From an uncultured Gammaproteobacteria bacterium (GTDB taxonomy: Bacteria; Pseudomonadota; Gammaproteobacteria; PS1; Pseudothioglobaceae): a stretch of 64,000 bases of DNA. Of this stretch, positions 20,019 to 36,643 are shown piece after piece. Both the position numbers and the translations under genes were made by a program. The stretch is taken from assembly GCA_963989885.1 (NCBI GenBank), contig CAXDLF010000002.1, positions 2,433 through 66,432 of the forward strand, given 5' to 3'. Under the pieces are notes generated by a model. The model had not been told where the DNA came from. It was given only the letters and a program-made list of their open reading frames with translations, and did no database searches. How positions within the stretch are numbered: the stretch's first letter is position 1; every line of letters begins with the position of its first letter.

Positions 20019-20045
20019 TGATTCTTATTACATAGTTAATTGGAG

Positions 20046-20846
20046 TTATGTTAAATTCTTTCTATCAAGAGTTTGACCGCCCTTCCAAGACACACCAACT
20101 TGACGGTAATAGCCCTGAATTAGTTCCTCAGGTTCGAGCAAATGAAATTCCTCAACCGGTGAAGAGAACAATTCAAGTTCAAAGGAACCTTTGAAGGTAA
20201 GACCAATCTCGGCATCAAAACCTGACATTGTTACTACTTCATTCAAACTGTCTTTACCATCGCATTCAATTGCCGGCATCCATCGGTTGTGAAGCATTGG
20301 TAAGGCATTGACAAACCCCGCATGATCTGATTCTGCCTCAATAGTGAACTTGGCTTGAACTAAGCGATGATCATAAGCAGCTAGAGTAGCCCCAAAAACA
20401 CCTCCAGGCGCAAGTCGAGGCCCTGCTTTTCCTACAGTTGTCGACCTTGTCAAATGAATGGAGCCAATTTTTTTCGGATATCCCTGAAATTGACCACGAG
20501 CAGCAGAAAAATCCTTGTCCACCCAAATATATATACAACGTGAGTAGGTTTTTCCTTTATATTTACAACGAACAACAAAGAACACCTCTTTATATTGGGC
20601 ACGAACAGGGTCTAATAATTCGTTAAAGTTATCGCTACAACTTTGCCAATCTGCCCAGATAACAGCGACAGCTCCGGGATCTTCTTCAGCCAACTCAATT
20701 CCATCTGGCAAGAGTTCTTCTACACGGTCAGGATTAGTTCGATATTCTAAGGTTAATAAGTCTCCCGAATAGTGCCAAGGTACATTGGGAATTAATGAAG
20801 AATTACCAGTGTGAGTTCTAGGAAAAAGAAAACCATTTAAAGACAT
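20046..20846 (-). CDS. Acetoacetate decarboxylase (ADC) family enzyme
   Basis: ADC-family pattern PWHYSGDLLTLEYRTNPDRVEELLP and adjacent lysines in GYPKK, matching the Lys115/Lys116 pair of clostridial ADC (from memory). The ATG at 20846 is preferred over the TTG at 20912. Confidence 0.75.
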   Translation of the reverse strand: MSLNGFLFPRTHTGNSSLIPNVPWHYSGDLLTLEYRTNPDRVEELLPDGIELAEEDPGAVAVIWADWQSCSDNFNELLDPVRAQYKEVFFVVRCKYKGKTYSRCIYIWVDKDFSAARGQFQGYPKKIGSIHLTRSTTVGKAGPRLAPGGVFGATLAAYDHRLVQAKFTIEAESDHAGFVNALPMLHNRWMPAIECDGKDSLNEVVTMSGFDAEIGLTFKGSFELELFSSPVEEFHLLEPEELIQGYYRQVGVSWKGGQTLDRKNLT

Positions 20847-20886
20847 ATATTCAACTATTTCAATTAATGTTATAAATATATGATAC

Positions 20887-20902
20887 CATTCGGGAGCGAA
20901 TG
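20887..20902. promoter_or_regulatory. Candidate operator CATTCG-GGAG-CGAATG (TTCG-N4-CGAA class) in the divergent ADC-marR / FAH-P450 control region
   Basis: Perfect 6+6 inverted repeat with a 4-nt spacer. It shares arm sequence and spacing with the 14-mers at 27320, 32822 and 35269. It lies 41 nt upstream of the ADC ATG. Confidence 0.5.
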
Positions 20903-21007
20903 AAATTATCAAAATTTAAATATACACCTTTGAAATTAAGTCATAATTCATAAATCATCGTATATAATATATAATCATTCGTACCCAAACGAAATATAGG
21001 ATTAAGT

Positions 21008-21898
21008 ATGCCAACCAAAGAATATCGGAAAATACTATTAAATGGAGAATCGGTTCAAGTTACTGTAGAGGGAGATGAACTGGTTACTAAAGACGGAAAA
21101 ATTGTTGACATCGAAGAAGCGCATCATCTGCCACCAACTCAACCCTCGAAGATTATTTGTGTTCATTTAAACTACGAAAGTCGCGTAAAGGAATATATAA
21201 CCAAGCTACCACCGGCCCCAACATATTTTCACAAACCCATCACTGCACTCAATAGTCACAAAGGTGATGTTGTTAGACCTGAACGCTGCAAATGGCTAAA
21301 CTATGAAGGCGAGATTGCCATAGTTATTGGTCGAAATTGTCGTAATATAAGCCCTGCTGAGGCGGGATCATATATTGAAGGTTATACAATAGCTAATGAT
21401 TACGGTTTGCATGATTTTAGAGATACAGATGCAGGATCAATGCTTAGAGTTAAGGGTTCAGACACTCTGTGTCCAGTCGGACCAGGTTTAGTTACTGGCT
21501 GGAATTTCCATAACAAAGGAATTCGCACAATTGTTAATGGGAAGGTTATGCAAGATGCGAATACTAGCGAGATGGAGTGGGATATGCACTACCTTGTCGC
21601 CGATATAGCCCGTAATATTACTTTAACACCCGGAGACCTGCTACTTTCAGGAACACCTGCAAATAGTCGCCCTGTCCAACCAGGTGATGTTGTCGAAGTT
21701 GAGGTAGAAGGTTTAGGTGTTTTATCCAACACAATCGTTAATGGTGTGGCTATTCGTGATGATGTCGGTGCCCAACCTTCTAGCTCTGAAGAAGTTGTTT
21801 CTACTGCTATGGGTGGTGACTGGGAATTTCGTGGACAAAGGGCAGCAGGCGGACAGGGTGCGAAACATTATAAATCCGCCGTAGAAACCAAAAAGTAG
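21008..21898 (+). CDS. Fumarylacetoacetate hydrolase (FAH) family enzyme (HpaG/MhpD-like hydratase, isomerase or decarboxylase) with a C-terminal low-complexity tail
   Basis: KIICVHLNYESR, NYEGEIAIVIGRN, GYTIANDYGLHDF and LLLSGTPANSRPVQPGDVVEVEVEGLGVLSN. About 55 extra C-terminal residues are rich in G/A/S/Q. Confidence 0.85.
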   Translation: MPTKEYRKILLNGESVQVTVEGDELVTKDGKIVDIEEAHHLPPTQPSKIICVHLNYESRVKEYITKLPPAPTYFHKPITALNSHKGDVVRPERCKWLNYEGEIAIVIGRNCRNISPAEAGSYIEGYTIANDYGLHDFRDTDAGSMLRVKGSDTLCPVGPGLVTGWNFHNKGIRTIVNGKVMQDANTSEMEWDMHYLVADIARNITLTPGDLLLSGTPANSRPVQPGDVVEVEVEGLGVLSNTIVNGVAIRDDVGAQPSSSEEVVSTAMGGDWEFRGQRAAGGQGAKHYKSAVETKK

Positions 21899-21924
21899 TT
21901 GAATATTAACCTTCAGAAAAAACA

Positions 21925-23202
21925 ATGATCAAAACAGTCAGCCCAAATAACAATGACGATATAAATGCAGATATTACTAGTCACGATACTTTTGAAAAAG
22001 GCTTCCCACATATGGCATTTAAAAGGATGCGTGATGAAGATCCCTGTGCTTGGATAGTTGAAACCGATGGCGGAAGTGGTTTCTGGGCTGTTACACGATA
22101 CAAGGATATTAAAGAGGTTAATGGTTTACCGAAAATTTTTAGCTCAGCACAGGGTATTCGTCTAGAAGAACAATCGAAAGAAGAATTTGAAGCTCGCAAG
22201 ACTTTCCAAGAAACTGACCCACCAGTCCATACTCGACAACGTATGATGTTCCATCGTGGATTTACTCGTAAACTTATTTCAACTTATGAACCAATGATTC
22301 GTGATATTTGTAACGATATTATTAATAAAGCAGTTGATTTGGGTGAGGTCGATGCTACTAAAGAGATTGCTAGAAAATTACCAATGAGAATGTTAGGTCG
22401 CGTTGTTGGAACTCCTGATGAGGATGCCGAGTGGCTAGTTTCAAGAGGTGACTCAATGATTGCTAACAGTGATCCAGATTTTACTGACTATGTTATCGAC
22501 AAGGTTGATACAGATGAATATCGATTTTTACCTTTTCGTTCCCCTGCTGGCAAGGAAATTTATGATTACGGAGAAAAACAAAGGAGACTTCGTGAAGATC
22601 ATGATATGGGTGATGTGATGTCAATGTTATTGCAACCAAACAAGCAGGGAGACAGACTTTCAGACCTCGAATTTAAAAACTTCTTTGCGCTCATGGTGGC
22701 TGCAGGAAATGATACAACGCGGTATTCGATGGCTTTTTCAATGCATGCTATAGCTAATAATCCTTATATTTTTGACTGTCTAAAATCCGCACCTGATGAT
22801 GCGCCGGTTTGGGCTAGCGCTACCGAAGAGTTTATCAGATGGGCTTCACCAACTATGCACTTTAGACGCACCGCAACAGAGGATTATAAACTTCATGGAA
22901 AGCAGATCAGAAAGGGAGAAAAAGTCGCCATTTGGTTTACTTCTGGAAATTACGATGAGCGAAAGTTTCCGGACCCATTCAATCTTATTTTAGAGAGAGA
23001 AAATAATCAACATATTGCTTTTGGTCAGGGCGGTCCTCATGCATGCTTGGGTATGTGGCTTGCACGATTGGAAGTTCGTGTGGCTATGCAGGAACTCCTT
23101 AAAAGGGTTTCGAAAATTGAGCAAATTGGTCCCGAAAAATACTTGCGCTCCAATTTTATTCGGGGAATAAAAAACTTGCCTGTTAAGTTAACATCGGCAT
23201 AA
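21925..23202 (+). CDS. Cytochrome P450 (class I, ferredoxin-dependent)
   Basis: I-helix AAGNDTTR, ExxR (EEFIRW) and heme-thiolate loop FGQGGPHACLG. Length 425 aa. Confidence 0.95.
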   Translation: MIKTVSPNNNDDINADITSHDTFEKGFPHMAFKRMRDEDPCAWIVETDGGSGFWAVTRYKDIKEVNGLPKIFSSAQGIRLEEQSKEEFEARKTFQETDPPVHTRQRMMFHRGFTRKLISTYEPMIRDICNDIINKAVDLGEVDATKEIARKLPMRMLGRVVGTPDEDAEWLVSRGDSMIANSDPDFTDYVIDKVDTDEYRFLPFRSPAGKEIYDYGEKQRRLREDHDMGDVMSMLLQPNKQGDRLSDLEFKNFFALMVAAGNDTTRYSMAFSMHAIANNPYIFDCLKSAPDDAPVWASATEEFIRWASPTMHFRRTATEDYKLHGKQIRKGEKVAIWFTSGNYDERKFPDPFNLILERENNQHIAFGQGGPHACLGMWLARLEVRVAMQELLKRVSKIEQIGPEKYLRSNFIRGIKNLPVKLTSA

Positions 23203-23233
23203 TATGGGATTAAATAATTAATTAAGGAGAATC

Positions 23234-24520
23234 ATGAAAGATTACAGAAGAGTTCGAGTGCTATTCTCAGATCATTTGGGTTTGGCGAGAGGAAAATATC
23301 AACCCATAAATACTGCAACTGGTGGTGAGGCAAGGTTTTGTATTAGCCTTTACGGCCTTACCTATGACAAGCAGTTATTACCAGTACCTGGTAGCGGTTT
23401 ACTTGATGGCTTGCCTGATGTAGTTGCTAAATTCAAAGAAAAAGACGTTCGCCCCTCCTGGGAGGCTGATACGGGTGTCGTTATACCGGATATTGAATTT
23501 AAGGGAAAACCTTTGGCACATTGTGGACGCAATGTATTGAAAAAGACAATAGCTCAGCTTGAAGGAATGGGTTTAACACCATATGTCGGAATCGAATTAG
23601 AAGCCTATGTTTTTCAAAAAGATAGTTCCGGCAACTGGGTTCCATACAACACTCCAGGAGCATATGTCTATGGTACTGGTTCAACGGTTGATCCTGCGGG
23701 TCTGATTGACGAAGTTTGGGAACAAGCTGAAGCTTGCGGTATTGAGCTAGAATCATTCAATTCAGAGTTTGATTCACCGCAATTTGAATTGACTCTAAAG
23801 TATGACATGGCTCTGGAAGCGGTTGATCAGATATTTCTATTCAAAGTCATGGCAAAAGAGATTTTTGAACAGAATGGCTACTTATTAAGTTTTATGCCAA
23901 AACCTTTATCGAAAACTGGTGGCAGTGGAATGCATGTTAATTTTAGTTTCAATAATAAAAAAGGCAATAATGCCATTTATGATAAGTCTTCCAAAGATGG
24001 CTTGTCTGATATTGCAAAAAAGGCTATTTCTGGTCTTGTAAAACACCATGAAGGTATGTCAGCTTTACTTGCGCCAACAGTTAATTCTTATCGAAGATTG
24101 TTGCCTGCAAGTCTTTCAGGATATTGGGCAAATTGGGGTTACGACCATCGAGGAGTGACAACAAGAATACCTGATGAACGTGGCGCAGGCACAAGAATTG
24201 AATTTAGAATGGCTGATTGTGCTGCTAATCCATATACTGCAGTTGCAACAGTTCTTCAAGCTGCTAAGTTGGGTATAGAGAATAATTATGAATTGCCTGA
24301 CGCAGAAACTCTAGACTGCCTTGAATCTCAAAGCACAGATAGACATGTTCCAGACAACTTGGCTCTTGCCTTGGAGGCTTTAAATGCTGATAAAGTTCTA
24401 TGTCAAGCGGTAGGCCAAGAGCTGGTAGATAATCATACTGCTATCAAGGAGCAAGAGTGGCAAGATTATGCTGCTCATACAACAGACTGGGAATTTGATC
24501 AATACCTGAAATATATCTAG
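23234..24520 (+). CDS. Glutamine-synthetase-like gamma-glutamyl-amine ligase (GmaS/IpuC/PuuA-type)
   Basis: GS catalytic-domain motifs GSGMHVNFS and NSYRRL, plus RIEFRMADCAANPY. Length 428 aa. Strong AAGGAG RBS. Confidence 0.85.
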   Translation: MKDYRRVRVLFSDHLGLARGKYQPINTATGGEARFCISLYGLTYDKQLLPVPGSGLLDGLPDVVAKFKEKDVRPSWEADTGVVIPDIEFKGKPLAHCGRNVLKKTIAQLEGMGLTPYVGIELEAYVFQKDSSGNWVPYNTPGAYVYGTGSTVDPAGLIDEVWEQAEACGIELESFNSEFDSPQFELTLKYDMALEAVDQIFLFKVMAKEIFEQNGYLLSFMPKPLSKTGGSGMHVNFSFNNKKGNNAIYDKSSKDGLSDIAKKAISGLVKHHEGMSALLAPTVNSYRRLLPASLSGYWANWGYDHRGVTTRIPDERGAGTRIEFRMADCAANPYTAVATVLQAAKLGIENNYELPDAETLDCLESQSTDRHVPDNLALALEALNADKVLCQAVGQELVDNHTAIKEQEWQDYAAHTTDWEFDQYLKYI

Positions 24521-24529
24521 GATTGGGTG

Positions 24530-25993
24530 ATGTCAAATAGAATTTCCATAAAAGGTGTCAAGGTTTCTACAGATCACTATATTAATGGAAAGCGAGTTTC
24601 GTCCGATAAAAAATTTAGCGTCATCAATCCAAATAATCCTAGCGAGATTCTCGCTGAAGTGTCAAGAGGTGATGCAAAAATAGCTAAACTCGCAGTTTCT
24701 GCTGCTCGAGAAGGATTTAATGTTTGGTCAGAAATGAGTGTTGAGGAGCGTGCATTGATTATGCACAGGCTAGCCGATCTTATCGAGTCTAATATTGACG
24801 ATATTTCCCTTATTGAGTGCTTAGATATGGGTATGCGCCATGAAAGTCTAAGAAACCGAGTCATTCCACGGGGTGCTAGAAATTTTCGTTCGTATGCAGA
24901 TATTGCTAAAGAATATAAACCAAGGAAATGGCATTCAAATACTACCAAGAATGAAATCCAACGTATGCCTAGCGGGATTAGCGTCATTATTACTCCTTGG
25001 AACGCTCCATTTATGTTGTCTACATGGAAGTGTGCGCCCGCCCTCGCTGCAGGCAATAGTGTGATTTTGAAGCCAGCTGAATGGTCACCATTATCAGCAT
25101 CATTGTTGGCTGATTTGATTGATGAAGCATGTTTTCCAGCTGGAGTCTTTAATATTGTCCAAGGCATTGGTGAAGAAGTTGGAGCGTTGCTAGTATCAAA
25201 CCCAAATGTGAATCGTGTTTCATTTACTGGCTCCCCTGAGGCGGCACGCCATATCGGTAAATCGGCCGCTGAAAATATCACCCCATTCACTGGTGAGTTG
25301 GGTGGAAAAAGTCCATTAATCATCTTTCCAGATGCGGATCTAGAATCGGCTGTTGCAAAGGCAGTAGGACAGTTTGATGACTCCGGTCAGATTTGTCTTG
25401 CAGGAACTAGATTATTGGTACATTCATCCATAAAAAATGAATTTTTAAATCGCTTCTTAGAACTGACTGCCGAACAAAAATTAGGTGCAAGTTTTGATGA
25501 CGAAACTGAAATTACCCCGATGATCCATCCAGAACATCTTCAAAGTGTTGCTGGCTTTGTTGACCGAGCTAGAATCAATGGAGACAAGATTCTGTGCGGT
25601 GGAAAGGTTTTTAAAAATGGCAAATTGTGGTATGAGCCAACTTTAATTGAACCTGTTTCTAATCAATCTGAAGTGGTTCAAAAAGAAATTTTTGGTCCAG
25701 TTTTGACACTTCAAACATTCGACACTGAATCAGAAGCGATTGAATTGGCAAACAGTACAGAATACGGCCTTGCCGGAATGCTCTATACCAAGAATCGTGA
25801 CATCGCTGAACGAGTTGGACGAGCAATTCGTGCAGGCACGGTTTGGGTTAACTGTTTTCTTATTCGTGACCTGACAGCACCATTTGGTGGTTTTGGAATT
25901 AGTGGTATTGGTCGAGAAGGTGGTGATTATGGAATTGATTTTCATAGTGACTTAAAAACCTTTCAAATACTTGATGATTCTTTATCTGAATAG
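24530..25993 (+). CDS. NAD(P)-dependent aldehyde dehydrogenase (resembles the hydroxymuconic-semialdehyde DH / ALDH8 group)
   Basis: FTGELGGKSP with the catalytic Glu, catalytic Cys in GQICLAGTR, and the EIFGPV motif. IPRGARNFRSYA resembles the HMSADH-type motif (from memory). The GTG at 24527 is an alternative start. Confidence 0.9.
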   Translation: MSNRISIKGVKVSTDHYINGKRVSSDKKFSVINPNNPSEILAEVSRGDAKIAKLAVSAAREGFNVWSEMSVEERALIMHRLADLIESNIDDISLIECLDMGMRHESLRNRVIPRGARNFRSYADIAKEYKPRKWHSNTTKNEIQRMPSGISVIITPWNAPFMLSTWKCAPALAAGNSVILKPAEWSPLSASLLADLIDEACFPAGVFNIVQGIGEEVGALLVSNPNVNRVSFTGSPEAARHIGKSAAENITPFTGELGGKSPLIIFPDADLESAVAKAVGQFDDSGQICLAGTRLLVHSSIKNEFLNRFLELTAEQKLGASFDDETEITPMIHPEHLQSVAGFVDRARINGDKILCGGKVFKNGKLWYEPTLIEPVSNQSEVVQKEIFGPVLTLQTFDTESEAIELANSTEYGLAGMLYTKNRDIAERVGRAIRAGTVWVNCFLIRDLTAPFGGFGISGIGREGGDYGIDFHSDLKTFQILDDSLSE

Positions 25994-26020
25994 TATTTTT
26001 ATTTTATTAGGATGCAGTAA

Positions 26021-26350
26021 ATGACAACCGTCAAATATATATTAGAAGATGACTCTGAAGTCCTGATTGAAGCAGATGTAGGGCAAAATTTAATGCAATT
26101 GGCCCTTGATAATAATCTTGATGGTATTGAGGGCGCCTGTGGTGGTTCCTGTATGTGCGGCACTTGCCATGTTCTAATTGAATCGGTTAAAGGAAAACAG
26201 CTTAAAGAAAGAGATGAAATGGAAACAATAATAATAGAAATGGAAATCGATGAGCTTGCTCCTCCTAATAGTCGCTTGGGATGTCAGATTACTATAGATG
26301 AAGGGATGGAGTCAATCACGGCACGTATTGCCAATCTTAGTAATTTCTAA
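26021..26350 (+). CDS. Adrenodoxin/putidaredoxin-type 2Fe-2S ferredoxin
   Basis: Cys pattern C-x5-C-x2-C (GACGGSCMCGTCHV) plus a distal SRLGCQI. It is 109 aa, acidic, and the last gene of the P450 operon. Confidence 0.9.
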   Translation: MTTVKYILEDDSEVLIEADVGQNLMQLALDNNLDGIEGACGGSCMCGTCHVLIESVKGKQLKERDEMETIIIEMEIDELAPPNSRLGCQITIDEGMESITARIANLSNF

Positions 26351-26365
26351 TATCTGGTGTAATAT

Positions 26366-27238
26366 TTAAGTCCAGCCCTCAACAGGTTGGTCAAACCAAA
26401 GATGGACTTGACCGGTTCCTGTGGCGTTTTCGTAGTCACCAAACTGACGGCCTTTGGCTCGACAATTCACTCCACCAATCGCCTCTGCCATAATTAAGTA
26501 GTGTCCAAATTTACCTTCTGGAGCGTATTTTTTATATTCATCCATTCCCTCAAATACAGAACGATGGTCACCTTTTTTTAACCAAGCAATTCTCTTCTCA
26601 TCGGCCTTCCTTGCTTCTGGTGTAATGACGTGAATAGGGTCAGATGCTTCATGTTTCTCGAGCTCATCAAGTGGCCAAAACCTATGACTTAATCCTCCAC
26701 TTGCTAATAGTACTACACGCTTATCAAATTGCTCTATTGCTTCTTTCAAGCCCCTACCAACCTCCATAAAATGCTCTTTCTTAGCTGTACCACAAATACT
26801 CATTGAAAGCCACTGTTCATTACCTTGGAGATACTCAAGTAAATTAACAGTGGGATAATGTATTGGTAGGTGTTCATTGTCGTTGGCAGAGCAACGCACA
26901 CCATTTTCATTGACACGTTCTACAATATTATTTGCTAATTCAGGATTACCAGTTATATCGAATGGAATGCTGTTCATAGTCCGAGGTAACTCCTCCGATG
27001 TATAAAAACCTCGACGCCTTTGATGACTCGTGACAATGAATTCAACGATCGTAAACCAATGAGTATCAATAACAATAACAACATCGGGATTAAGTGGTTC
27101 TAAGATTTCACGTCGCATGTCTTGAAGACCGGTCACTAATGAGATTTCTTTGCCATCATTTAGAGCATATCGTTGCTCTTTAGACATCATAATTGTTGGT
27201 ACATGAGATACCAATCCAACCCCTACTATTTCACCCAA
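26366..27238 (-). CDS. Class III extradiol ring-cleavage dioxygenase (LigB family catalytic subunit)
   Basis: VGLVSHVPTIM N-terminus, DTHWF and SGGLSHRF (His-containing LigB motifs). The TTG start at 27238 is preceded by GGAG at 7 nt. The ORF-track ATG at 27271 adds a hydrophobic, non-conserved extension. Confidence 0.8.
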   Translation of the reverse strand: MGEIVGVGLVSHVPTIMMSKEQRYALNDGKEISLVTGLQDMRREILEPLNPDVVIVIDTHWFTIVEFIVTSHQRRRGFYTSEELPRTMNSIPFDITGNPELANNIVERVNENGVRCSANDNEHLPIHYPTVNLLEYLQGNEQWLSMSICGTAKKEHFMEVGRGLKEAIEQFDKRVVLLASGGLSHRFWPLDELEKHEASDPIHVITPEARKADEKRIAWLKKGDHRSVFEGMDEYKKYAPEGKFGHYLIMAEAIGGVNCRAKGRQFGDYENATGTGQVHLWFDQPVEGWT

Positions 27239-27319
27239 ATTTATTCTCCAAAAAAAAATCCAAAAAAACATTCTAACTACATCAACTTACTTCAACAAGG
27301 AATCAAAGAGCAAAAATTT

Positions 27320-27333
27320 GTTCGTATACGAAC
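27320..27333. promoter_or_regulatory. Candidate operator GTTCGTATACGAAC (perfect 14-bp palindrome) upstream of the LigB-type dioxygenase gene
   Basis: Perfect palindrome, identical to the 14-mer at 35269-35282. It lies 10 nt downstream of a candidate -10 element and 82 nt upstream of the TTG start. Confidence 0.6.
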
Positions 27334-27376: not shown

Positions 27377-28096
27377 CTAAGAGCAAAAAAACTCCATAAT
27401 CCACTGAGCCCAAATACTGGAATCAGATTTACCATTTTCAATACGTAGCCTAGCTTTTTGAAGTTCTTTTTCGGTTAACACTTTTTTAGTAACTTCAAGA
27501 AAGTTATACATTGCGCGTTTTGGTTGTTCTGGATGTCCCTGAAGACAAGCGATATTTTTACCAAGAGTATAGGCAAAGTCTGGATAGTCTTCAGTGCGAG
27601 CAAAACTTATTGCACTATCAGGTAATTTAGTCACCCTCTCTTTATTAAAATGATACAGGTCGGTAGTGTCTAATTTATTTTTCATCCAAGGAAATTTTTT
27701 ATTGATTTCTAGGGGGAAGCTCCCTATCATCCAGCCTTTTTCATTATTACCAACAACACCGCCAAAATGCTCTGCAATGAGTTGATGACCAAAACACACT
27801 CCAACGATCGGTTTATTTTTATTGTCTGCATGGCCCACAAATTCCGAAAGCATTTTTATCCAATCATAATTATCGTGAACACTAACTGGACTTCCTGTCA
27901 ATAAGTAGCCATCGTAACTCTCAATAATTTCAGGAAACTCGTATTCCGACACATAAAAAATATCAAATTTTGCATTGTCGTTTTCAGGCGCTAGCAAGTC
28001 AACAAATTTCTGACCGTCAGTAACACCATTATCATCACGCCAATGAAATTTCGGCACAGAATCAAGTATTGCAATTTTGATTGGCTGTTCGTTCAT
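27377..28096 (-). CDS. Class I glutamine amidotransferase-like protein (stand-alone; probable gamma-glutamyl-amide hydrolase)
   Basis: Nucleophile elbow GVCFGHQ and His-Glu in LQGHPE. Length 239 aa. Its ATG directly abuts the sulfatase TAG (TAGATG). Confidence 0.8.
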   Translation of the reverse strand: MNEQPIKIAILDSVPKFHWRDDNGVTDGQKFVDLLAPENDNAKFDIFYVSEYEFPEIIESYDGYLLTGSPVSVHDNYDWIKMLSEFVGHADNKNKPIVGVCFGHQLIAEHFGGVVGNNEKGWMIGSFPLEINKKFPWMKNKLDTTDLYHFNKERVTKLPDSAISFARTEDYPDFAYTLGKNIACLQGHPEQPKRAMYNFLEVTKKVLTEKELQKARLRIENGKSDSSIWAQWIMEFFCS

Positions 28097-29665
28097 CTAC
28101 CATCTACCAATAATAATTCCTGCCTTCTCGTCTGCTTCAGGCGAGCGTTTATAAAGCTCATCTAAATGAACCACGGTTCTTTGCTTTCTTTGTCTTAGCC
28201 AAGCAAATAATTGCTTTTCAAAGTCAGCTAAACACTTAGATTGGTCTGGATTTTCAGCGAGATCATTGAACTCATTAGGGTCATTCAACAAGTCAAACAA
28301 TTGTGCTCGAAAGCCTTCCCAATAAATATACTTCCAACGAGTATTTTTTATCATGTAGCCTCGACACTTGTAAGGGTGATGATCAAGGATTTGTCTAGCA
28401 CCACGATCGCTATAATCTATTTCGGCAAAAACCGTATCACGCCAAGCTGTGTTATCACCAAAAAGCAATGGGACAAGCGATCGACCCTCCATTCTATTAG
28501 ATGCATATGAACCTCCCATCGTTTCGACAAGGGTCGGCACTATATCAACTGATTCAGTCATTCTATTTTCAGAAGTTCCACGAAGATTTTCCGGCATTTC
28601 AGGCTCAACAATAATTAGTGGAATGCGAATTGAGGGCTCATGAAATAAATCCTTCTCACCAAGCCAATGATCACCAAGATAGTCGCCATGGTCGCTGGTA
28701 AAAATAATTAAAGTATTTCTACTTAAATTATTTTCATCTAAAAACGTTATAAGTCTACCAATATGATGGTCAATTTCACTTATCAGACCCATATAGGTTG
28801 GAATTACGTGTCTACGTTTTTTCTCGTCTGTGTAGTTTCGAGAATATTCAAGCTGCTGAAAAGCAGAAAAGACGGGGTGAGGATTTTTCTGCTCGATCTT
28901 ATCCTTAACAACCCCTACAACATCACTGTCTTTATACATTTTGTGGTACGGCGAGGGAGCAAGCAAAGGCCAATGAGGATTAAAATAACTCAAATGTAAA
29001 CACCATGGGGTATCCTTATTTCGAGTAGAAATATACTCCATTGCACGATTGGTTAGAAAAGCTGTTTCTGAATGCTGTGCTTCGATATCTGAAGGCAAAT
29101 GAGCATTCCTCATCTCCCAGCCGCTACATTTCAAACCAGACTTTTTAGTAGCAGTATTAGCTGCGTTTTCCCAAGGATTATGCATCTCATAGCCTTGAGA
29201 CAATAAATAATCGTTATAGCCAACTCCATCATAGACAATAGGCTCTGGATATAAACCTCCATAATGCTCAAAAGGGGTAAAACCATTGTCATGACGATTT
29301 AGAGCTATTTCAGAATCTAGTGGTACGTTCAGACGCGATAAGCCTTCTGTATTAGGACGTCCTTCGCTTTTACCTACAACATGCGCTTCAATACCCAACT
29401 CACGCATGTAATCACCCAAGGTAACTTCGTCGACTTTTATTGGGTCGTCATTAGCCATCACTCCGTGACTAGTCATATAACGACCAGTATAAAAACTTGC
29501 CCTGCTAGGACCGCACAGTGAGGCATTACAATAGCTGTTCTCAAACAACATACCTCGACTGGCAAGTTTATCAATATTCGGTGTGTTTATGCTGGGATGA
29601 CCAGTACAACCAAGATAATCATGCCTTAGCTGGTCACACATAATAAATAAGATATTTTTATTCAC
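28097..29665 (-). CDS. Cys-type sulfatase without a signal peptide (predicted cytoplasmic)
   Basis: NILFIMCDQL N-terminus directly at the start, formylglycine motif CGPSRASFYTGR, and SDHGD metal site. GTG start. Length 522 aa. Confidence 0.9.
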   Translation of the reverse strand: MNKNILFIMCDQLRHDYLGCTGHPSINTPNIDKLASRGMLFENSYCNASLCGPSRASFYTGRYMTSHGVMANDDPIKVDEVTLGDYMRELGIEAHVVGKSEGRPNTEGLSRLNVPLDSEIALNRHDNGFTPFEHYGGLYPEPIVYDGVGYNDYLLSQGYEMHNPWENAANTATKKSGLKCSGWEMRNAHLPSDIEAQHSETAFLTNRAMEYISTRNKDTPWCLHLSYFNPHWPLLAPSPYHKMYKDSDVVGVVKDKIEQKNPHPVFSAFQQLEYSRNYTDEKKRRHVIPTYMGLISEIDHHIGRLITFLDENNLSRNTLIIFTSDHGDYLGDHWLGEKDLFHEPSIRIPLIIVEPEMPENLRGTSENRMTESVDIVPTLVETMGGSYASNRMEGRSLVPLLFGDNTAWRDTVFAEIDYSDRGARQILDHHPYKCRGYMIKNTRWKYIYWEGFRAQLFDLLNDPNEFNDLAENPDQSKCLADFEKQLFAWLRQRKQRTVVHLDELYKRSPEADEKAGIIIGRW

Positions 29666-29679
29666 TCAATTAATGTAGA

Positions 29680-31161
29680 TTAGTTAGCTTGACTTCTGTA
29701 TTGGCGCCATATTGACCAAAAATGAATTAATAGTGCTATCACAATTATCGCAAAAATTATGCCTGAAATGGGTCTATTTATATAGTCAAATAAAGTATCG
29801 ATACGTGCCTGACTAGCACGAAACTTTAGTTCCATGATGTTACCTAATACCATTCCAAGAATGATTGGCACAATAGGTAGATTGAGTCGCTTTAAAGCAT
29901 AACCAAGTACACCAAAAACAGCACACATTATGCAATCAATCATAGAATTTCTTAGCGTATAAACACCAACAAATGAGAGTCCCAAAATTGAGGCACCCAA
30001 AAAACGCTGTGGTATCTGAATTATTTTGAGTAGAGATTTTGTAGCAATAAGCAAGAAAATTATCACAATAATATTAATTAAAATTAAACTTGCGTATAGT
30101 CCATACACAAAATCAATATGTTTTACAAACAAATCTGGGCCAGGAATGATGCTATGAACATAAAAAACTGATAGCATCATTGCTGTTAAAGCTTCGCCAG
30201 GAATACCAAGTGCTAAGAGTGGAATCATGGCTGCAGCTGGAACGGCATTATTGGCAGCTTCAGCGGCGATAATACCTTCTGGAGCCCCTTTACCAAATCT
30301 TTCAGGTTTGTCAGAAATGCCTCTGGCTATATTGTAAGAAAAAAATTGTGCTAGGAACTCACCTACACCAGGAATAATTCCCATTATCACTCCCATACCT
30401 GAAGAAATGAGAGCAATAGTTTTATATTTGATTAGATCGAATAAGCCTTCACTTTTTTTACCTTTTAAACTAGGCATTGAGACACGTTTATCTTTACCAA
30501 TAAGCAGTATGAAAGCCTGAGAAACCGCAAATAAACCGAGCAATACGGTAATTAAATCAAAGCCTGATAAGAGCCATGATTGGTCAAAAGTAAATCGCTT
30601 TGTATATCTGACATTTTCCATTCCGATGGTGCTTATAAACATTCCAAAAAAAACTAGCATTCCAGCTATTAGGGTTTGTTTTCTATGTGAGATAACAACC
30701 AATACCAATCCCAACAAGGCTGCCATCAGAATATCTCTAGAGCCAAACAGTGGAGCCACCTTGGCTATTAAAGATGTCATAAAAACAAGACTCATAATTG
30801 AGAAAATACCTCCAGTAAACGAAGACCAATAAGCCAGAGTGATGGCTCGCCTTGCTTTATTATCTTTCGTCATGCTGTAGCCATCATAAGTAGTCAATGC
30901 ATTGACGGGTGTACCAGGAGTATTAATCAAAATTGCTGGTATGGCGCCACCATACATTGCAGAACCATAAATACCCAATAGCACAGTAATACCAATAATT
31001 GGCTCCATACTGTAGGTTGCAGGAAGCAAAATAGCAATCGCCACGGCCGGCCCAACTCCTGGAATCGCGCCAATAATCACCCCACCTATTGAACCAACTA
31101 ATATAGCTACCCAGACATCCCATCTAAGGAATATGTCAAAACTTGAAAGAATTAAGTCCAT
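29680..31161 (-). CDS. tctA: Tripartite tricarboxylate transporter large permease TctA
   Basis: 493 aa and about 12 TM helices. It has TctA-type repeated GxIPGVG motifs (GAIPGVGPAVAIA; GIIPGVGEFLAQF). Confidence 0.9.
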   Translation of the reverse strand: MDLILSSFDIFLRWDVWVAILVGSIGGVIIGAIPGVGPAVAIAILLPATYSMEPIIGITVLLGIYGSAMYGGAIPAILINTPGTPVNALTTYDGYSMTKDNKARRAITLAYWSSFTGGIFSIMSLVFMTSLIAKVAPLFGSRDILMAALLGLVLVVISHRKQTLIAGMLVFFGMFISTIGMENVRYTKRFTFDQSWLLSGFDLITVLLGLFAVSQAFILLIGKDKRVSMPSLKGKKSEGLFDLIKYKTIALISSGMGVIMGIIPGVGEFLAQFFSYNIARGISDKPERFGKGAPEGIIAAEAANNAVPAAAMIPLLALGIPGEALTAMMLSVFYVHSIIPGPDLFVKHIDFVYGLYASLILINIIVIIFLLIATKSLLKIIQIPQRFLGASILGLSFVGVYTLRNSMIDCIMCAVFGVLGYALKRLNLPIVPIILGMVLGNIMELKFRASQARIDTLFDYINRPISGIIFAIIVIALLIHFWSIWRQYRSQAN

Positions 31162-31168
31162 GAATTAA

Positions 31169-31696
31169 TCAAAAATAAACCATAAAAAATGTTGCCCAAC
31201 CATCTGGAAGATAATCATAAATTGCGCCACTGGGTATCTTTACTTGTAATAAAGATTTAAATACAACCACAATTCCAAATCCCGTCACTAAACTAACCCA
31301 GAACATGGAAAGAGTTCGATAACCTGATCTAATGGTCAGTAGCGAGAAAAACAATAAGGTCGAAAGTAAATAGCCTACTAAGGGAACAAACCAAACATAC
31401 AATACAAAATAAAAAACAAACTCTAAAGTTCTTGACCAGGATGATAATTCATTTAATTCACCCTGAACCTGGCCTAGTTGCAATTTATAACTTCGCCAGA
31501 TCTGCATACTATAAAGCAAACCGAACAGAGCCATTCCGACTAGACAAAATGTGGGCCAAAGCCTTGGTTGTTTAACTAATGGGACGCCATCAAACCACTT
31601 TGTTTCAAAGGGAATTGATACTAGTAAAACCAATACAATAAGAAGCATCAGAATTACAAAGACTAAATCACCTGCTTGGTATTCTTCTTTACCCAT
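31169..31696 (-). CDS. tctB: Tripartite tricarboxylate transporter small subunit TctB
   Basis: 175 aa with four hydrophobic helices. It sits between tctC and tctA, so the assignment rests mostly on context. Confidence 0.65.
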   Translation of the reverse strand: MGKEEYQAGDLVFVILMLLIVLVLLVSIPFETKWFDGVPLVKQPRLWPTFCLVGMALFGLLYSMQIWRSYKLQLGQVQGELNELSSWSRTLEFVFYFVLYVWFVPLVGYLLSTLLFFSLLTIRSGYRTLSMFWVSLVTGFGIVVVFKSLLQVKIPSGAIYDYLPDGWATFFMVYF

Positions 31697-31734
31697 AAAG
31701 ATCTATAAAATTATGATTACTTTACATTTTATAT

Positions 31735-31764
31735 AAAAAAAAGGAAGGTTAATTAACCTTCCTT
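31735..31764 (-). terminator. Intra-operon rho-independent terminator/attenuator between tctC and tctB
   Basis: Perfect palindrome AAGGAAGGTTAATTAACCTTCCTT (31741-31764), followed on the minus strand by a T tract (A run 31735-31740 on plus). Confidence 0.55.
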
Positions 31765-31785
31765 TTCTTTGTAGTTTTGTCTCTA

Positions 31786-32724
31786 CTAAAGACTACCAAT
31801 AGTAGCCATAGTCGCCCTGTCTTTATTGATTTGTGCAGTTGAAGCATCAGCATCCATCCAGTAGATTAATGCACCGCTGTTGGCCGCGACTTCTTGCGCC
31901 CTATCACTTAGCATTGATTTCTTGGCAACAGCAATAATCTTATCTTTAACATCCTGTGGTGTGCCTTCTCCGACAAATAAGCCGTTCCATAAAAATATAT
32001 CTAACTCAGGTATCAATTCACCAATTGCTGGTGTGTTCGGTACCTTAGATATACGCTCATTTGTTATAGAAACCAAAACTTTAACATCATTTAAGCATGG
32101 CAGGATTAGCTGAATCGTTGTATTAATAACGTCTGCATCACCTGAAGCTAAAGTATTACAGTCCAGCATATCAAAGGCAGCGTCCGAACCCCATTCGAAG
32201 CCATATATCTTAGCTGCAGCTTTGGTCACCTGGGTTGGTGCCAGTGGGTCACCAAAGTGACCTAGCGTTACCTTGTTACTTTTAGCATGATAAGCTAATT
32301 GTTGAAATGAACTATATGGAGCATCGCCTGCTACAGCTATCACAAATGGATAGGTTAGGAAAATCCCTAGAGGCTCGAAAGTGTCTTCAGTCAAACCTTC
32401 TATTCCAAGATTTGGTCCTACAACCGGTACACCGATTACAAATGAACCTACCATGGAACCATCAGGATCTGCTGCCGCTACTTCCATCGCACCAGGGAAT
32501 GGACCACCGCCACCGCCTGGTTTATTAACAACCGCTGCTGCAACACCATATTCAGCCTGAAAGTCTTCTGCAATCATCCTGGTTAAAACATCTTCAAGAT
32601 CACCAGGAGGCCATGGCACAACAAAAGTCACAGGTTTATCAGGATAATCAGCCTGTGCAATTGGCATACCTACCATAAAAGCTGAAAGTGCAAAAAGCAC
32701 TCCAATCAAAGTTTTTTTCATCAT
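31786..32724 (-). CDS. tctC: Tripartite tricarboxylate transporter periplasmic substrate-binding protein (TctC/Bug family)
   Basis: Signal peptide ending AQA, followed by DYPDKPVTFVVPWPPG and VVNKPGGGG (Bug-family N-terminal pattern). Length 312 aa. Confidence 0.85.
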   Translation of the reverse strand: MMKKTLIGVLFALSAFMVGMPIAQADYPDKPVTFVVPWPPGDLEDVLTRMIAEDFQAEYGVAAAVVNKPGGGGGPFPGAMEVAAADPDGSMVGSFVIGVPVVGPNLGIEGLTEDTFEPLGIFLTYPFVIAVAGDAPYSSFQQLAYHAKSNKVTLGHFGDPLAPTQVTKAAAKIYGFEWGSDAAFDMLDCNTLASGDADVINTTIQLILPCLNDVKVLVSITNERISKVPNTPAIGELIPELDIFLWNGLFVGEGTPQDVKDKIIAVAKKSMLSDRAQEVAANSGALIYWMDADASTAQINKDRATMATIGSL

Positions 32725-32821: not shown

Positions 32822-32835
32822 GTTCGTATACAAAC
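32822..32835. promoter_or_regulatory. Candidate operator GTTCGTATACAAAC (one mismatch to the 14-bp palindrome) upstream of tctC
   Basis: 13/14 identical to the sites at 27320 and 35269. It lies 6 nt downstream of a candidate -10 element and 98 nt upstream of the tctC ATG. Confidence 0.55.
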
Positions 32836-32841
32836 AATCCA

Positions 32842-32870
32842 AATATAACATAATACTTTTAAATAATCAA
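32842..32870 (-). promoter_or_regulatory. Candidate sigma70 promoter of the tctCBA-sulfatase-GATase operon (TTGATT-17 nt-TATATT on the minus strand)
   Basis: The reverse complement of 32865-32870 is TTGATT and that of 32842-32847 is TATATT. The spacer is exactly 17 nt. Confidence 0.45.
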
Positions 32871-32963: not shown

Positions 32964-35117
32964 CTAATGGTATGGTTTAACCAATAAAGTTTCAGCATCA
33001 AGTTGATAATCCTTTTCTGTCGCATTTATTAAACGACGTTCACGAATGAATGGCTTATGTTGGTCGGGGTTATCCGCATCAAATTCTCTTGCAAGACGAG
33101 TTCCAGAAAAAGTTGCCTGTGCAATTACGTTTGGCGTGTGAGCGTCACCGATTAAATGTATAGACTTAATTCCAGCATTGGACATTTCATCAGGCGATCC
33201 TTGTAGTTGATCATATAAATCACAATTAGAAGTTCTGTGCGTGACTAACATAACACTATCGTATTCAACAGTCATTTCCTCACCTTTCCATATATCCACA
33301 AGGGTTGCATTTCCATTTTCAACAGCTACTGCGACATGCTGATGAATCGTTTTAACACCGAGTTCAAGAAGTCTCATTAACATTCGTTGCTCTTCCAAAA
33401 CTAGGCGGAGGTATGGGCCAACGGTTTCTCCATAAGTAGCGTAAGTTACTTCATGACCGTTTTCTGCAATAAGTTCCGCCATAGCAGAACCCATATAATA
33501 TGGATCATTGTCGATTACTAATACTCTTTTTCCGAGTTTTTTCCCATATACACAATACTGTTCTGGAGTAGTAATTTCTGGTTTTGAAGCGTCAGCTCCA
33601 GCTATATAATCATGAAGCGGTGATGACATACCCGTTTCGTCCCAATTAGAACCGGTTGCGAAAACAATGCGCTCAGCTCCACATTCAAGAACATCTTTAT
33701 AATTAAGCCGATTATTTAAGATAATTTGTACATTGGTTTTTGTTCTAATTTGAGTTTCCCGCCAATCAATAACTCTCTTCCAAGCCCCAAAATTAGGCAG
33801 TTTAGAAACCCAACGTAAATGACCACCTATTTCAGCTTCAGCTTCAATTAAATGAACGGTATTATAACCACGAAGACCAAGAGTCATAGCACACTCAAGT
33901 CCAGCAGGCCCTGCCCCAACAACAACAATTGGAAGATCAGGATTGTTTGTTGGAACATATTTTTCAGGATGCCAACCTCTACGATATTCTTCACCGGAGG
34001 TTGGATTTTGAGTGCACCAAATTGGCGGCCCACCTTTTTCCCATCGAGAAACACAAATGTTGCAACCAATACACTCTCGGATATCATTGTATCGACCTTC
34101 CTCTATTTTTTTTGGTAAAAATGGATCAGAAATTGATGGACGAGCTGCCCCAATAATATCGCACTGGCCAGAATTTATTACTTTGATCATAATCTCAGGA
34201 TCTGTAAATCGACCAACATTTATAACCGGTTTTTTGGAAGCTTTTTTTGCATGATGGGTATACTGTGCTTGATGGTTTGAATCAAAGAATCGGGAAGATC
34301 CCGCATCCTCTCCCCAATTAAGAGTACCAATATTTATATCCCAATAGTCAACCAAATCATCCATTGCTTTGATGAAGGCTATACCCTCATCTTCAGCTTT
34401 TATACCTAAATCTCCAAAACCAAAAGGTTCAGATAACGTATCAATTGGAAAACGAATTCCAATTGCACAGTCATCAATTTCCTCTCTCATCATCTCTAAC
34501 AATTCTCGAGTAAAACGACATCGGTTTTCAAAGGAACCGCCGTATTCGTCAGTACGTTTGTTGTGATAACGGTACAAGAAATTCTGGGGTATTGTCGAAA
34601 GACCAACATAAACAGTCAGCAAATCAAAACCTGCTGCTCTTGCTCTTAAAGCTCCATCCACATGTTCACGTTGTATTTGTCGAATTTCTTTAATTGTCAT
34701 TGCCCTGGCACTTGCCATAGGTTCAAATTCATGTGGTATTTGCGAGGGTGCTCGAGTTGGTTCACGGGTTTCTGCATTCAGGCCAAAGGTAGTAGCATGG
34801 GTAAGTTCCACTCCAGCAAGACCACCATGAGCGTGGATACTATCGCACATCAAAGATAAATTCCTAACGTCACCTTCATCAATAATCTTACTTCCAACCC
34901 ATGGATGAATATCACTATCATGCGTTATAAAACAAACTTCCGTAAAAACTGCTCCCCAACCACCTTCAGCTTTCATTCCTCGAAAAGATGCCTGCATTCC
35001 TGGTTTGTCTGATCCAGCTCCATTACAGTGAGGCACTTGCCAGAATCGGTTTTTAAGAACTTTCGGACCAAGTTTGATTGGTTCAAAAAGAATATCGTGA
35101 CGTTTTTCTCTAGCCAT
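32964..35117 (-). CDS. Trimethylamine/dimethylamine/histamine dehydrogenase family iron-sulfur flavoprotein
   Basis: The N-terminus HDILFEPIKLGPKVLKNRFWQVPHC carries the Cys that forms 6-S-cysteinyl-FMN in TMADH. The 4Fe-4S motif CIGCNICVSRWEKGGPPIWC and ADP-binding VVGAGPAGLE are present. Length 717 aa. AGGAGG RBS. Confidence 0.9.
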   Translation of the reverse strand: MAREKRHDILFEPIKLGPKVLKNRFWQVPHCNGAGSDKPGMQASFRGMKAEGGWGAVFTEVCFITHDSDIHPWVGSKIIDEGDVRNLSLMCDSIHAHGGLAGVELTHATTFGLNAETREPTRAPSQIPHEFEPMASARAMTIKEIRQIQREHVDGALRARAAGFDLLTVYVGLSTIPQNFLYRYHNKRTDEYGGSFENRCRFTRELLEMMREEIDDCAIGIRFPIDTLSEPFGFGDLGIKAEDEGIAFIKAMDDLVDYWDINIGTLNWGEDAGSSRFFDSNHQAQYTHHAKKASKKPVINVGRFTDPEIMIKVINSGQCDIIGAARPSISDPFLPKKIEEGRYNDIRECIGCNICVSRWEKGGPPIWCTQNPTSGEEYRRGWHPEKYVPTNNPDLPIVVVGAGPAGLECAMTLGLRGYNTVHLIEAEAEIGGHLRWVSKLPNFGAWKRVIDWRETQIRTKTNVQIILNNRLNYKDVLECGAERIVFATGSNWDETGMSSPLHDYIAGADASKPEITTPEQYCVYGKKLGKRVLVIDNDPYYMGSAMAELIAENGHEVTYATYGETVGPYLRLVLEEQRMLMRLLELGVKTIHQHVAVAVENGNATLVDIWKGEEMTVEYDSVMLVTHRTSNCDLYDQLQGSPDEMSNAGIKSIHLIGDAHTPNVIAQATFSGTRLAREFDADNPDQHKPFIRERRLINATEKDYQLDAETLLVKPYH

Positions 35118-35268: not shown

Positions 35269-35282
35269 GTTCGTATACGAAC
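35269..35282. promoter_or_regulatory. Candidate operator GTTCGTATACGAAC (perfect 14-bp palindrome) upstream of the TMADH-family gene
   Basis: Identical to 27320-27333. A TATAGT hexamer (reverse complement of 35281-35286) overlaps its edge. It lies 152 nt upstream of the ATG. Confidence 0.6.
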
Positions 35283-35326: not shown

Positions 35327-36643
35327 CTACGGAAAATCCTTGTTTTCTTCAAGAACGTAACGCTTAAATAGTTCACCGCGTTCATTAAAATCAACAAACA
35401 TATCAAAACTCGCACAACCAGGTGAAAGCAATATTGCTCCTTCCTTAGTAATAGCTTTTGAAGAGATGACTGCTTGCTTCATTGATTCAACAATACTTAC
35501 AGGACAACCATTAATCTGTTGAGAAAATAATGTTGCAGATTCTCCAATCAAAATGACAGCATCAATCTTTTCACTTATTAACTTAAAAAGTTTTGAATAG
35601 TCTTCTTTTTTTGCAATCCCGCCGGCAATTAAAACTATCGATTTATATCTATCTGAAAGAGCCTCAATAGCTGTAACAGTAGAAATTGCATTGGTAGATT
35701 TGGAGTTATTGAAGTAATCTACTCCACTAAGATTTGCAACCCACTCCAATCTGTGCGGTAAACCTGTAAAGGACTTTGCGACCTGTGCCATCTCCTGTAC
35801 CGATAGTCCTGCTTGTTGACCAAGCGTTAATGCTGCAAGCACATTTTCAACATTGTGTCGCCCAACCACTATCAGGTCATCACTTGTCATTAGAATATCT
35901 TTACTCTGGTATAGGGTATAGACACTACCAACTTTCTTGGCACTGAATTCACAACTTTGAGTGATCTCTCCAATCGCGTAGTGACTATCACCCTTGATAC
36001 CTTTAACCAAGGATTCATTAAGGTTAACAACCGAATACTGGCAGTATTCATAAAGTTTCAATTTAGAAGCAATATAGATATCATAATTTGGATATCTATC
36101 TAGATGGTCCGGAGTGATATTGGTCACTACCCCAGTTAATAAATTAAGACTGTTTGTATAATCAAGCTGGTAACTAGACATTTCAACAACGTATAGCTCA
36201 GCTTCGTCGCTCAAACTCTCCATAACTGGTTTTCCAATGTTGCCGCAAATGACAGCATTTTTCCCACTACCTATGGCCATTTCTCCCAGTAATTGAGTCA
36301 CTGTAGATTTACCGTTAGAGCCCGTTATGCCAACAATTGGCGCCTTTGTGTATCGGCCAAAAAGCTCAATATCACTGATAACGGGGATTTTTCGCTGTCG
36401 CGCCCAAACAACAATTGATTCCGTTTCCGCAATTCCAGGACTGATGACAACTTCGCTGATATCGTCAAGCAATGATTCTTTCCATTCACCAAGATGACAA
36501 TCTGAGAGTAGGTTTTCTTGTTTACATGTTTCTTGCATTGGTGGAGACAAACGGGAATCCGCAATACGGTAGTCAATATTATTTGATGAAAAGAAACGCG
36601 CAACCGACAAACCGGTCAGCCCCATACCCAAAATAAGTTTCAT
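35327..36643 (-). CDS. murD: UDP-N-acetylmuramoylalanine--D-glutamate ligase
   Basis: GMGLTGLSVARF N-terminus and Mur ligase P-loop GITGSNGKSTV. Length 438 aa. Confidence 0.9.
   Translation of the reverse strand: MKLILGMGLTGLSVARFFSSNNIDYRIADSRLSPPMQETCKQENLLSDCHLGEWKESLLDDISEVVISPGIAETESIVVWARQRKIPVISDIELFGRYTKAPIVGITGSNGKSTVTQLLGEMAIGSGKNAVICGNIGKPVMESLSDEAELYVVEMSSYQLDYTNSLNLLTGVVTNITPDHLDRYPNYDIYIASKLKLYEYCQYSVVNLNESLVKGIKGDSHYAIGEITQSCEFSAKKVGSVYTLYQSKDILMTSDDLIVVGRHNVENVLAALTLGQQAGLSVQEMAQVAKSFTGLPHRLEWVANLSGVDYFNNSKSTNAISTVTAIEALSDRYKSIVLIAGGIAKKEDYSKLFKLISEKIDAVILIGESATLFSQQINGCPVSIVESMKQAVISSKAITKEGAILLSPGCASFDMFVDFNERGELFKRYVLEENKDFP

Follow-up and report, generated by a model that had tools for sequence, protein, structure and literature searches.

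The analysed window, a stretch of 64,000 nucleotides (nt) of contig CAXDLF010000002.1 from an uncultured gammaproteobacterium of the family Pseudothioglobaceae, contains a five-gene operon in which the genes of a tripartite tricarboxylate transporter (TTT; tctC, tctB, tctA) are followed by genes for a cytoplasmic sulfatase and a class-I glutamine amidotransferase-fold protein (GATase). Within a catabolic island of 16 kb, this operon is the part that provides uptake and deconjugation. We consider the chances about even that it serves to import an O-sulfated compound of the tyrosine, DOPA or hydroxyphenylacetate type, which is then desulfated in the cytoplasm, freed of an amide group and subjected to ring opening.

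According to this proposal, TctC would bind the anionic, O-sulfated aromatic compound in the periplasm, TctBA would move the intact ester into the cell, and the SpAS1-type formylglycine sulfatase would free a phenol or catechol in the cytoplasm. The GATase would hydrolyse a gamma-glutamyl (amide) bond, which might either be formed by the glutamine synthetase (GS)-like ligase of the island to enable action of a cytochrome P450 (P450), or be already present on the imported compound. The catechol would then be passed from a LigB-type dioxygenase to an HpaE-like aldehyde dehydrogenase (ALDH), a FAH-family enzyme and an ADC-family enzyme. We infer the substrate class, the order of the steps, the role of the P450 and the carriage of the sulfated form by the TTT system from the genes and their neighbourhoods; the substrate class is suggested by the LigB, HpaE-like and HpaG-like neighbours and by tyrosine/DOPA decarboxylases encoded beside orthologues.

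Operon structure and the cytoplasmic sulfatase

All five proteins scored above the cut-offs of their own Pfam families (TctC, TctB, TctA, Sulfatase and GATase; Table 1). Their genes are separated by gaps of 89, 7, 14 and 0 nt, and the stop codon of the sulfatase gene is contiguous with the GATase start (TAG/ATG), an arrangement present in 7 of 7 Thioglobus loci (the own one and six relatives). Open reading frames and domain assignments thus agree with a first-pass annotation made from the sequence, which had described a five-gene operon on one strand with this contiguous junction and gaps of 0-14 nt after tctB.

The importer was identified as a TTT system by the presence of TctC, TctB and TctA domains in one operon and by the signal peptide of TctC, whose hydrophobic N-terminus ends in AQA. 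It shares the gene order tctC-tctB-tctA, a binding protein with signal peptide and the expectation of an anionic substrate with the characterised systems for citrate (TctC), aspartate (BugD), terephthalate (TphC) and adipate (AdpC). SlcHFG is a TTT system for sulfolactate. In contrast to the characterised systems, TctC of the operon has low identity to any solved binding protein, the best solved relative being BugD with 82 bits. It is 63-79% identical to TctC proteins of distant lineages that carry the cluster.

As an in-frame TGA codon (29668-29666) abuts the GTG start of the sulfatase at position 29665, an N-terminal extension is impossible. The same codon is ATG in six Thioglobus relatives, where the N-termini read M-[T/N/K]-K-N-[I/V]. 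In the alignment with the crystallised SpAS1 chain, residue 2 of the protein already matches the first strand; there is therefore no signal peptide, as had been noted in the first-pass annotation. The lack of a leader is not special to this gene, however: sulfatase homologues number in the thousands and are nearly all 521-530 amino acids (aa) long, so that leader absence is a family trait, found in the whole clade of arylsulfatases (AS) and phosphonate monoester hydrolases (PMH). As the sulfatase is cytoplasmic, the ester it cleaves has to enter the cell. The obvious carrier would be the neighbouring TTT system, which is conserved in place, and an Opp-type system probably substitutes for it in other lineages. 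Uptake of an intact sulfate ester followed by intracellular desulfation, as initially proposed, is thus in keeping with a leaderless Cys-type sulfatase encoded behind an importer.

The best solved relative of the sulfatase was SpAS1 (PDB 4UPI) with 503 bits (E=1e-149) and 55% identity over the full length; SpAS2 (PDB 4UPL) gave 451 bits, PMH structures 222-231 bits and choline sulfatase structures about 138 bits. By these comparisons the protein is assigned to the SpAS1-like AS/PMH clade as a cytoplasmic member. Active-site residues named for SmCS (PMC5870055) were mapped onto an alignment of 83 homologues. The formylglycine motif reported previously is indeed intact (C51-G-P-S-R55, followed by ASFYTGR), and no fewer than 97% of the homologues share C51 and R55. 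Ten of 11 AS-type positions are kept, with D11, Q12, C51, R55, N72, K99, H231 (mapped by inferred alignment offset), D325, H326 and K338 as conserved columns; these include the metal ligands, the sulfate-binding Lys/Asn and the His-Lys general-acid pair. In these features, as in the CxPxR motif and the lack of a leader, the protein resembles SpAS1 and SpAS2, the dimeric arylsulfatases of Ruegeria (Silicibacter) pomeroyi. It differs from SpAS1 in having GKSE in place of GKTH, and in being embedded in a defined context of importer and catabolic genes. Comparison with four relatives gave dN/dS values of 0.06-0.09 (sulfatase) and 0.08-0.12 (GATase gene), from which we conclude that both genes are maintained, the sulfatase under strong purifying selection.

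The GATase is a stand-alone protein without a synthase partner domain. It has the catalytic triad Cys101, His188 and Glu190, and its best solved relative is the Arabidopsis gamma-glutamyl peptidase 1, GGP1 (PDB 9K7I; E=2e-24), by which it is classified as a class-I hydrolase of the gamma-glutamyl-peptidase type. The island ligase is closest to GS and glutamate-methylamine ligase, and the presence of this GS-like gamma-glutamyl ligase indicates that amine or amide chemistry is involved. Both assignments favour the earlier suggestion that an amine arises along the route. A paralogous stand-alone GATase, 30% identical to that of the operon, is encoded at 39253-39975 (minus strand).

Distribution of the gene cluster

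The closest loci were found in metagenome-assembled genomes of Candidatus Thioglobus, a lineage of dark-ocean sulfur oxidisers, and in the single-cell genome SCGC AAA007-O20, with sulfatases 80-96% identical to that of the window. Of 41 sampled genomes of the same genus, 10 encoded the sulfatase, which was absent from all 79 genomes representing 18 other genera of the family; the island is therefore an accessory one. Wherever a Thioglobus contig was long enough, the sulfatase gene directly followed tctA with a gap of 14-18 nt.

A comparison anchored on the sulfatase comprised 83 loci. Class A (eight loci) consists of Thioglobus loci with the full gene set. In class B (14 loci), genes for TTT, LigB, P450, GS, ALDH, FAH and ADC occur in several gene orders without a GATase gene; the lineages concerned are Arenicellales, Poriferihabitaceae and Acidiferrobacteraceae-type genomes. 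The association between TTT and sulfatase genes pointed out in the first-pass annotation thus recurs, rearranged, outside Thioglobus. In class C (six gammaproteobacterial loci) the sulfatase gene is immediately preceded by an Opp-type ABC importer, and a GATase (51-53% identical) is encoded nearby; an AADC-type pyridoxal phosphate (PLP) decarboxylase is encoded in four of these loci, and a ferredoxin reductase was identified in one (L057). In class D (four loci from SAR324 and Lambdaproteobacteria) the GATase gene lies directly upstream of the sulfatase gene, preceded by an amidase gene in at least two loci; the gene order on one annotated SAR324 contig is amidase-GATase-sulfatase-TetR. An alphaproteobacterial clade of 33 loci lacks all of the TTT/GATase neighbours. 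All 32 loci with a TTT and/or GATase neighbour fall into one of the two main sulfatase clades. Neighbour labels cluster strongly on this tree, a quick one with SH-aLRT support only, and kinship contributes to the clustering.

GATase homologues adjoin the sulfatase in SAR324 and in other gammaproteobacteria, and they adjoin P450 and GS genes in clusters without sulfatase; order and orientation of the sulfatase and GATase genes vary between lineages. A search of plasmids with the GATase yielded only matches of 25-34% identity.

Decarboxylases encoded beside orthologues point to the kind of aromatic compound concerned. On contig L130, genes for an amidase, LigB, GATase, a decarboxylase, the sulfatase, tctC, tctB and tctA follow each other on one strand, and an Opp-type importer adjoins them. 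The decarboxylase scored 510 bits to tyrosine decarboxylase (6EEI) and 484 bits to DOPA decarboxylase. Six further loci (the four of class C, L061 and L081) encode an AADC-type decarboxylase no more than 10 kb away from the sulfatase. Sulfated phenolic acids or amines, named as an alternative substrate class in the first-pass annotation, fit these decarboxylases as well as the LigB, HpaE-like and HpaG-like neighbours. In another gammaproteobacterium (L008:10904-15463) a sulfatase homologue is located a few kb from microcompartment shell genes (BMC, EutN/CcmL), which are accompanied by genes for an aldehyde dehydrogenase and a class-III aminotransferase.

On the transporter side, metagenomes were scanned with TctC. 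Proteins with 73-79% identity accompany class-B-like clusters. Another 14 loci, with TctC 67-74% identical, contain P450, GS and ferredoxin genes and no sulfatase gene; some of them encode a 33%-identical GATase beside the P450, plus distant ALDH, LigB and FAH relatives. Because the 14 loci combine TctC with P450 and GS in this way, the oldest link seems to be that of the TTT system with ligase and P450, the sulfatase having been added in some lineages.

Carriers of the cluster are free-living Thioglobus, SAR324, Arenicellales and sponge symbionts. A widespread, undescribed marine pathway that consumes O-sulfated, amide-conjugated tyrosine/DOPA-type compounds is a tentative explanation, possible rather than probable. 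It would comprise a shared enzyme set (an SpAS1-type sulfatase, partly as the Lys-x-Glu variant, a GGP1-like GATase and sometimes an amidase and a Tyr/DOPA decarboxylase), interchangeable importers of the TTT or Opp type, and maturation of the sulfatase in streamlined genomes without either formylglycine-generating enzyme (FGE) or anaerobic sulfatase-maturating enzyme (anSME). All parts are of known kinds; their combination was not found described. Our literature searches revealed no study that connects a TTT system with either a sulfate ester or a sulfatase, and no described bacterial TTT uptake with intracellular desulfation of sulfated phenolics; nor did those on catabolism of gamma-glutamyl-tyramine or -dopamine, or on the sulfates of tyrosine and dopamine in seawater, bring up work on a pathway of this kind. 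Sulfated phenolics occur in animal excretions. Marine algae and seagrasses commonly contain them as well (PMC12432060, PMC6278426), and the cluster may mark an unrecognised oceanic source of carbon and nitrogen.

Competing readings and maturation of the sulfatase

Several observations weigh against import and desulfation of a tyrosine/DOPA-type ester as outlined above: (i) the P450, closest to CYP125, CYP124 and CYP268, is nearest to CYP125/124-type terminal hydroxylases and not to known ring hydroxylases; (ii) a GATase orthologue was not found in four of five sponge-symbiont (class-B) genomes that carry the rest of the cluster, and other lineages have the GATase without a GS-like ligase; (iii) a search of the own genome yielded no group-II PLP decarboxylase, hence a step from tyrosine to tyramine is missing here; (iv) the existence of 14 TctC loci without sulfatase implies that the TTT ligand need not be sulfated; (v) the nucleophile-contacting His (His104 of SmCS; GKxH) is replaced by Glu101 in the sulfatase; and (vi) with FGE and anSME both undetected, the enzyme could be active only through some other maturation route or with its Cys unmodified. 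The second point leaves the partner of the GATase ambiguous. An obligatory partnership with GS and P450, considered as a candidate, was not upheld by the class-B genomes.

The main rival takes up the fourth point. It holds that what enters through the TTT system, as in the clusters that lack a sulfatase, is an aromatic amino or carboxylic compound without a sulfate group, and that sulfatase and GATase are add-ons for conjugates entering by another way, the operon layout then reflecting co-regulation and not a substrate shared with the importer. We regard this as unlikely, though worth serious consideration. Apart from the 14 sulfatase-less loci, it accounts for the sulfatase following an Opp-type ABC importer in other lineages. 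It fits less well with the invariable position of the Thioglobus sulfatase gene directly behind tctA, with the recurrence of the TTT-sulfatase adjacency in unrelated gene orders, and with TctCBA being the sole transporter encoded within the island.

The replacement at position 101 bears on whether the enzyme acts on aryl O-sulfates at all. In PMHs, Tyr and Thr replace exactly the Lys and His positions of arylsulfatases (PMC5870055). The sulfatase has K99 and E101 at these discriminating positions, neither Y nor T, so that one of the two is changed (K..E compared to K..H in AS and Y..T in PMH). Among the 83 homologues, His is present 53 times, Glu 27 times and Asp three times, and both the His and the Glu variants occur amid the same TTT, P450 and LigB neighbours. 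Because of this shared context we read Glu101 as a working alternative base rather than as evidence of decay. That the enzyme mainly hydrolyses phosphonate monoesters or phosphodiesters in the manner of PMH/PehA, or cleaves an N-sulfo (sulfamate) bond, is improbable in our view. PehA (NF045661, S1_0) was the top NCBIfam match, and the clade is known for promiscuity (PMC5870055); yet the PehA score of 315.8 bits is far below the cut-off of 900, Lys99 is retained, similarity to SpAS1 is twice that to PMHs, and no phosphorus-scavenging genes lie nearby.

Even less credit is given to the idea that the sulfatase is catalytically dead or weakly active for want of a maturation enzyme. The first-pass annotation had noted that neither FGE nor anSME is encoded in the window, and the search was widened to whole genomes. 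Neither FGE (PF03781) nor anSME (TIGR03942) was found in the own genome (1.62 Mb, 144 contigs, 94.6% complete) or in three related island-carrying Thioglobus genomes, although absence cannot be proven from incomplete genomes. A sulfatase homologue is also encoded by Arenicellales nBUS_45, whose complete genome of 2.7 Mb yielded neither enzyme. SAR324 genomes carry FGE. Against an inactive enzyme stand the low dN/dS, the nucleophile motif, which is invariant across the 83 homologues, and the presence of the gene in RNA libraries. In addition, AS and PMH enzymes reportedly acquire their formylglycine in E. coli through an unknown host enzyme (PMC5870055). If the pathway common to several lineages exists, genomes of 1.6 Mb without FGE and anSME would narrow down the search for the third formylglycine-generating system, which has long been sought. 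The own genome encodes a second leaderless Cys-type sulfatase of 523 aa on contig C6 (L003:1171-2742, minus strand), with the motif C-Q-P-N-R and GKAH and about 27% identity to the operon sulfatase. Two conserved Cys-type sulfatases in a 1.6-Mb genome lacking detectable FGE and anSME offer a tractable setting for the question of formylglycine origin.

A BetC-type choline-O-sulfatase feeding a quaternary amine to the TMADH-family enzyme, as envisaged in the first-pass annotation, is scarcely plausible and was rejected. BetC (SulfAtlas S1_12) is likewise a cytoplasmic Cys-type S1 enzyme of similar length from the same wider AS/PMH neighbourhood (PMC5870055), the TMADH gene shares the operator-like palindrome described below, and the ALDH also resembles betaine-aldehyde dehydrogenase. 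However, the choline-sulfatase model TIGR03417 gave only 216 bits (cut-off 433.45) with its best stretch confined to residues 199-486, BetC structures score far below SpAS1, a bet gene context is lacking, and choline-sulfatase activity was undetectable for the characterised relatives SpAS1, SpAS2 and RlPMH (PMC5870055). The TMADH gene, moreover, is missing from about half of the Thioglobus island copies and from four of the five sponge-symbiont cluster genomes; for this reason TMADH was rejected as a core partner. Hence the layout, the leaderless sulfatase and the link to the importer stand from the initial description, while choline sulfate and a core role of TMADH do not.

The surrounding island, operator-like sites and transcripts

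The island is bounded by miaA (18528..19445) and murD (35327..36643). Features of the operon and of its surroundings are listed in Table 1.

Table 1. Operon genes, island genes and regulatory signals, with positions in the window.
Feature	Position	Strand	Remarks
tctC, periplasmic binding protein, N-terminal signal peptide	32724..31786	minus	Pfam TctC 52.1 bits
tctB, small membrane subunit	31696..31169	minus	Pfam TctB 46 bits
tctA, large membrane subunit	31161..29680	minus	Pfam TctA 426.5 bits
Cys-type (formylglycine) sulfatase, 522 aa, SpAS1 aryl-sulfatase clade	29665..28097	minus	PF00884 170.7 bits (cut-off 25)
GATase, stand-alone class-I fold, 239 aa	28096..27377	minus	PF00117 52 bits
ADC-family enzyme and MarR/HpaR-like regulator	19485..20912	minus	
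Operon: FAH (HpaG-like), P450 (CYP125/124-like), GS-like gamma-glutamyl ligase, ALDH (HpaE-like), 2Fe-2S ferredoxin	21008..26350	plus	
LigB-type extradiol dioxygenase, homoprotocatechuate-dioxygenase-like	26366..27271	minus	Pfam LigB 113 bits, HpaD_Fe 142 bits, PDB 8IQ8 86 bits
TMADH-family flavoprotein, optional island member	32964..35117	minus	
Operator-like palindrome GTTCGTATACGAAC, perfect	27320..27333		between GATase and LigB genes
Operator-like palindrome GTTCGTATACGAAC, perfect	35269-35282		before TMADH gene
Operator-like palindrome, one mismatch from GTTCGTATACGAAC	32822..32835		about 100 nt upstream of tctC
Variant palindrome	20889-20900		ADC/FAH divergent region
Promoter-like TTGATT-17-TATATT	32842..32870	minus	before tctC; consensus scan, pattern match only
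Perfect 12-bp hairpin and T-run, attenuator or terminator	31739..31766		between tctC and tctB

The gene content of the island recalls two known pathways. Like the homoprotocatechuate (hpa) meta-cleavage pathway it comprises an HpaD-like LigB enzyme, whose best solved relative is 3,4-dihydroxyphenylacetate 2,3-dioxygenase, an HpaE-like ALDH, an HpaG-like FAH protein and an HpaR-like MarR regulator. It differs in that all scores are below the equivalog cut-offs and in that the HpaBC hydroxylase, HpaF, HpaH and HpaI are lacking; the ADC-family enzyme may take over the last hpa-like steps. With the ipu pathway for isopropylamine (IpuC ligase, P450 system, IpuF hydrolase), which follows a logic of ligase, P450 and amidotransferase-type hydrolase (PMC6776027), it shares a GS-like ligase, a P450, a ferredoxin and a GATase-fold hydrolase in one island. 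In contrast to ipu, the hydrolase gene follows those of a TTT importer and a sulfatase, with translational coupling to the latter, aromatic ring-cleavage genes are added, and the island of the own strain lacks a ferredoxin reductase. Such a reductase is also absent next to the ferredoxin gene in the closest relatives L011 and L012 (corresponding to 26350-26366 of the window); in L004 (13339-14550), L019 and L025 one of about 400 aa adjoins the ferredoxin.

Locus L004, with a sulfatase 86% identical to that of the operon, has the same island between murD and miaA, without the TMADH gene and with the ferredoxin reductase. The TMADH gene is present in L011, L012 and L016 but not in L004 and L014. 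An orthologue (75% identical) is adjacent to the cluster in only one of the five sponge-symbiont genomes. Beside the cluster on an Arenicellales chromosome (L038:34-1571) there is such a 75%-identical orthologue followed by a gene for a GcvT-like folate-binding aminomethyltransferase, a pair whose predicted functions hint at N-demethylation of a methylated amine.

The units of the island share an operator-like palindrome, an arrangement that, by sequence pattern, is regulon-like and suggestive of co-regulation. The copy with one mismatch before tctC sits just downstream of the promoter-like site; perfect copies (TTCGTATACGAA) occupy the matching place before tctC in six Thioglobus relatives, and the palindrome at the LigB gene is likewise conserved in relatives.

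Contigs of three metatranscriptome studies, 90-99% identical in sequence, span the operon from end to end (those of run X14 only in part) and bridge the junctions tctC-hairpin-tctB, tctA/sulfatase and sulfatase/GATase. Since these are assembled contigs, a single transcript and relative expression levels cannot be proven from them; the presence of the operon in RNA libraries is consistent with, and no proof of, its transcription. In two RNA runs, word depth over the tctC contig was 30-100 times that over the downstream genes, contig depth being an unreliable measure. Together with the hairpin between tctC and tctB, this gives a hint of attenuation by which the binding protein would be over-produced.

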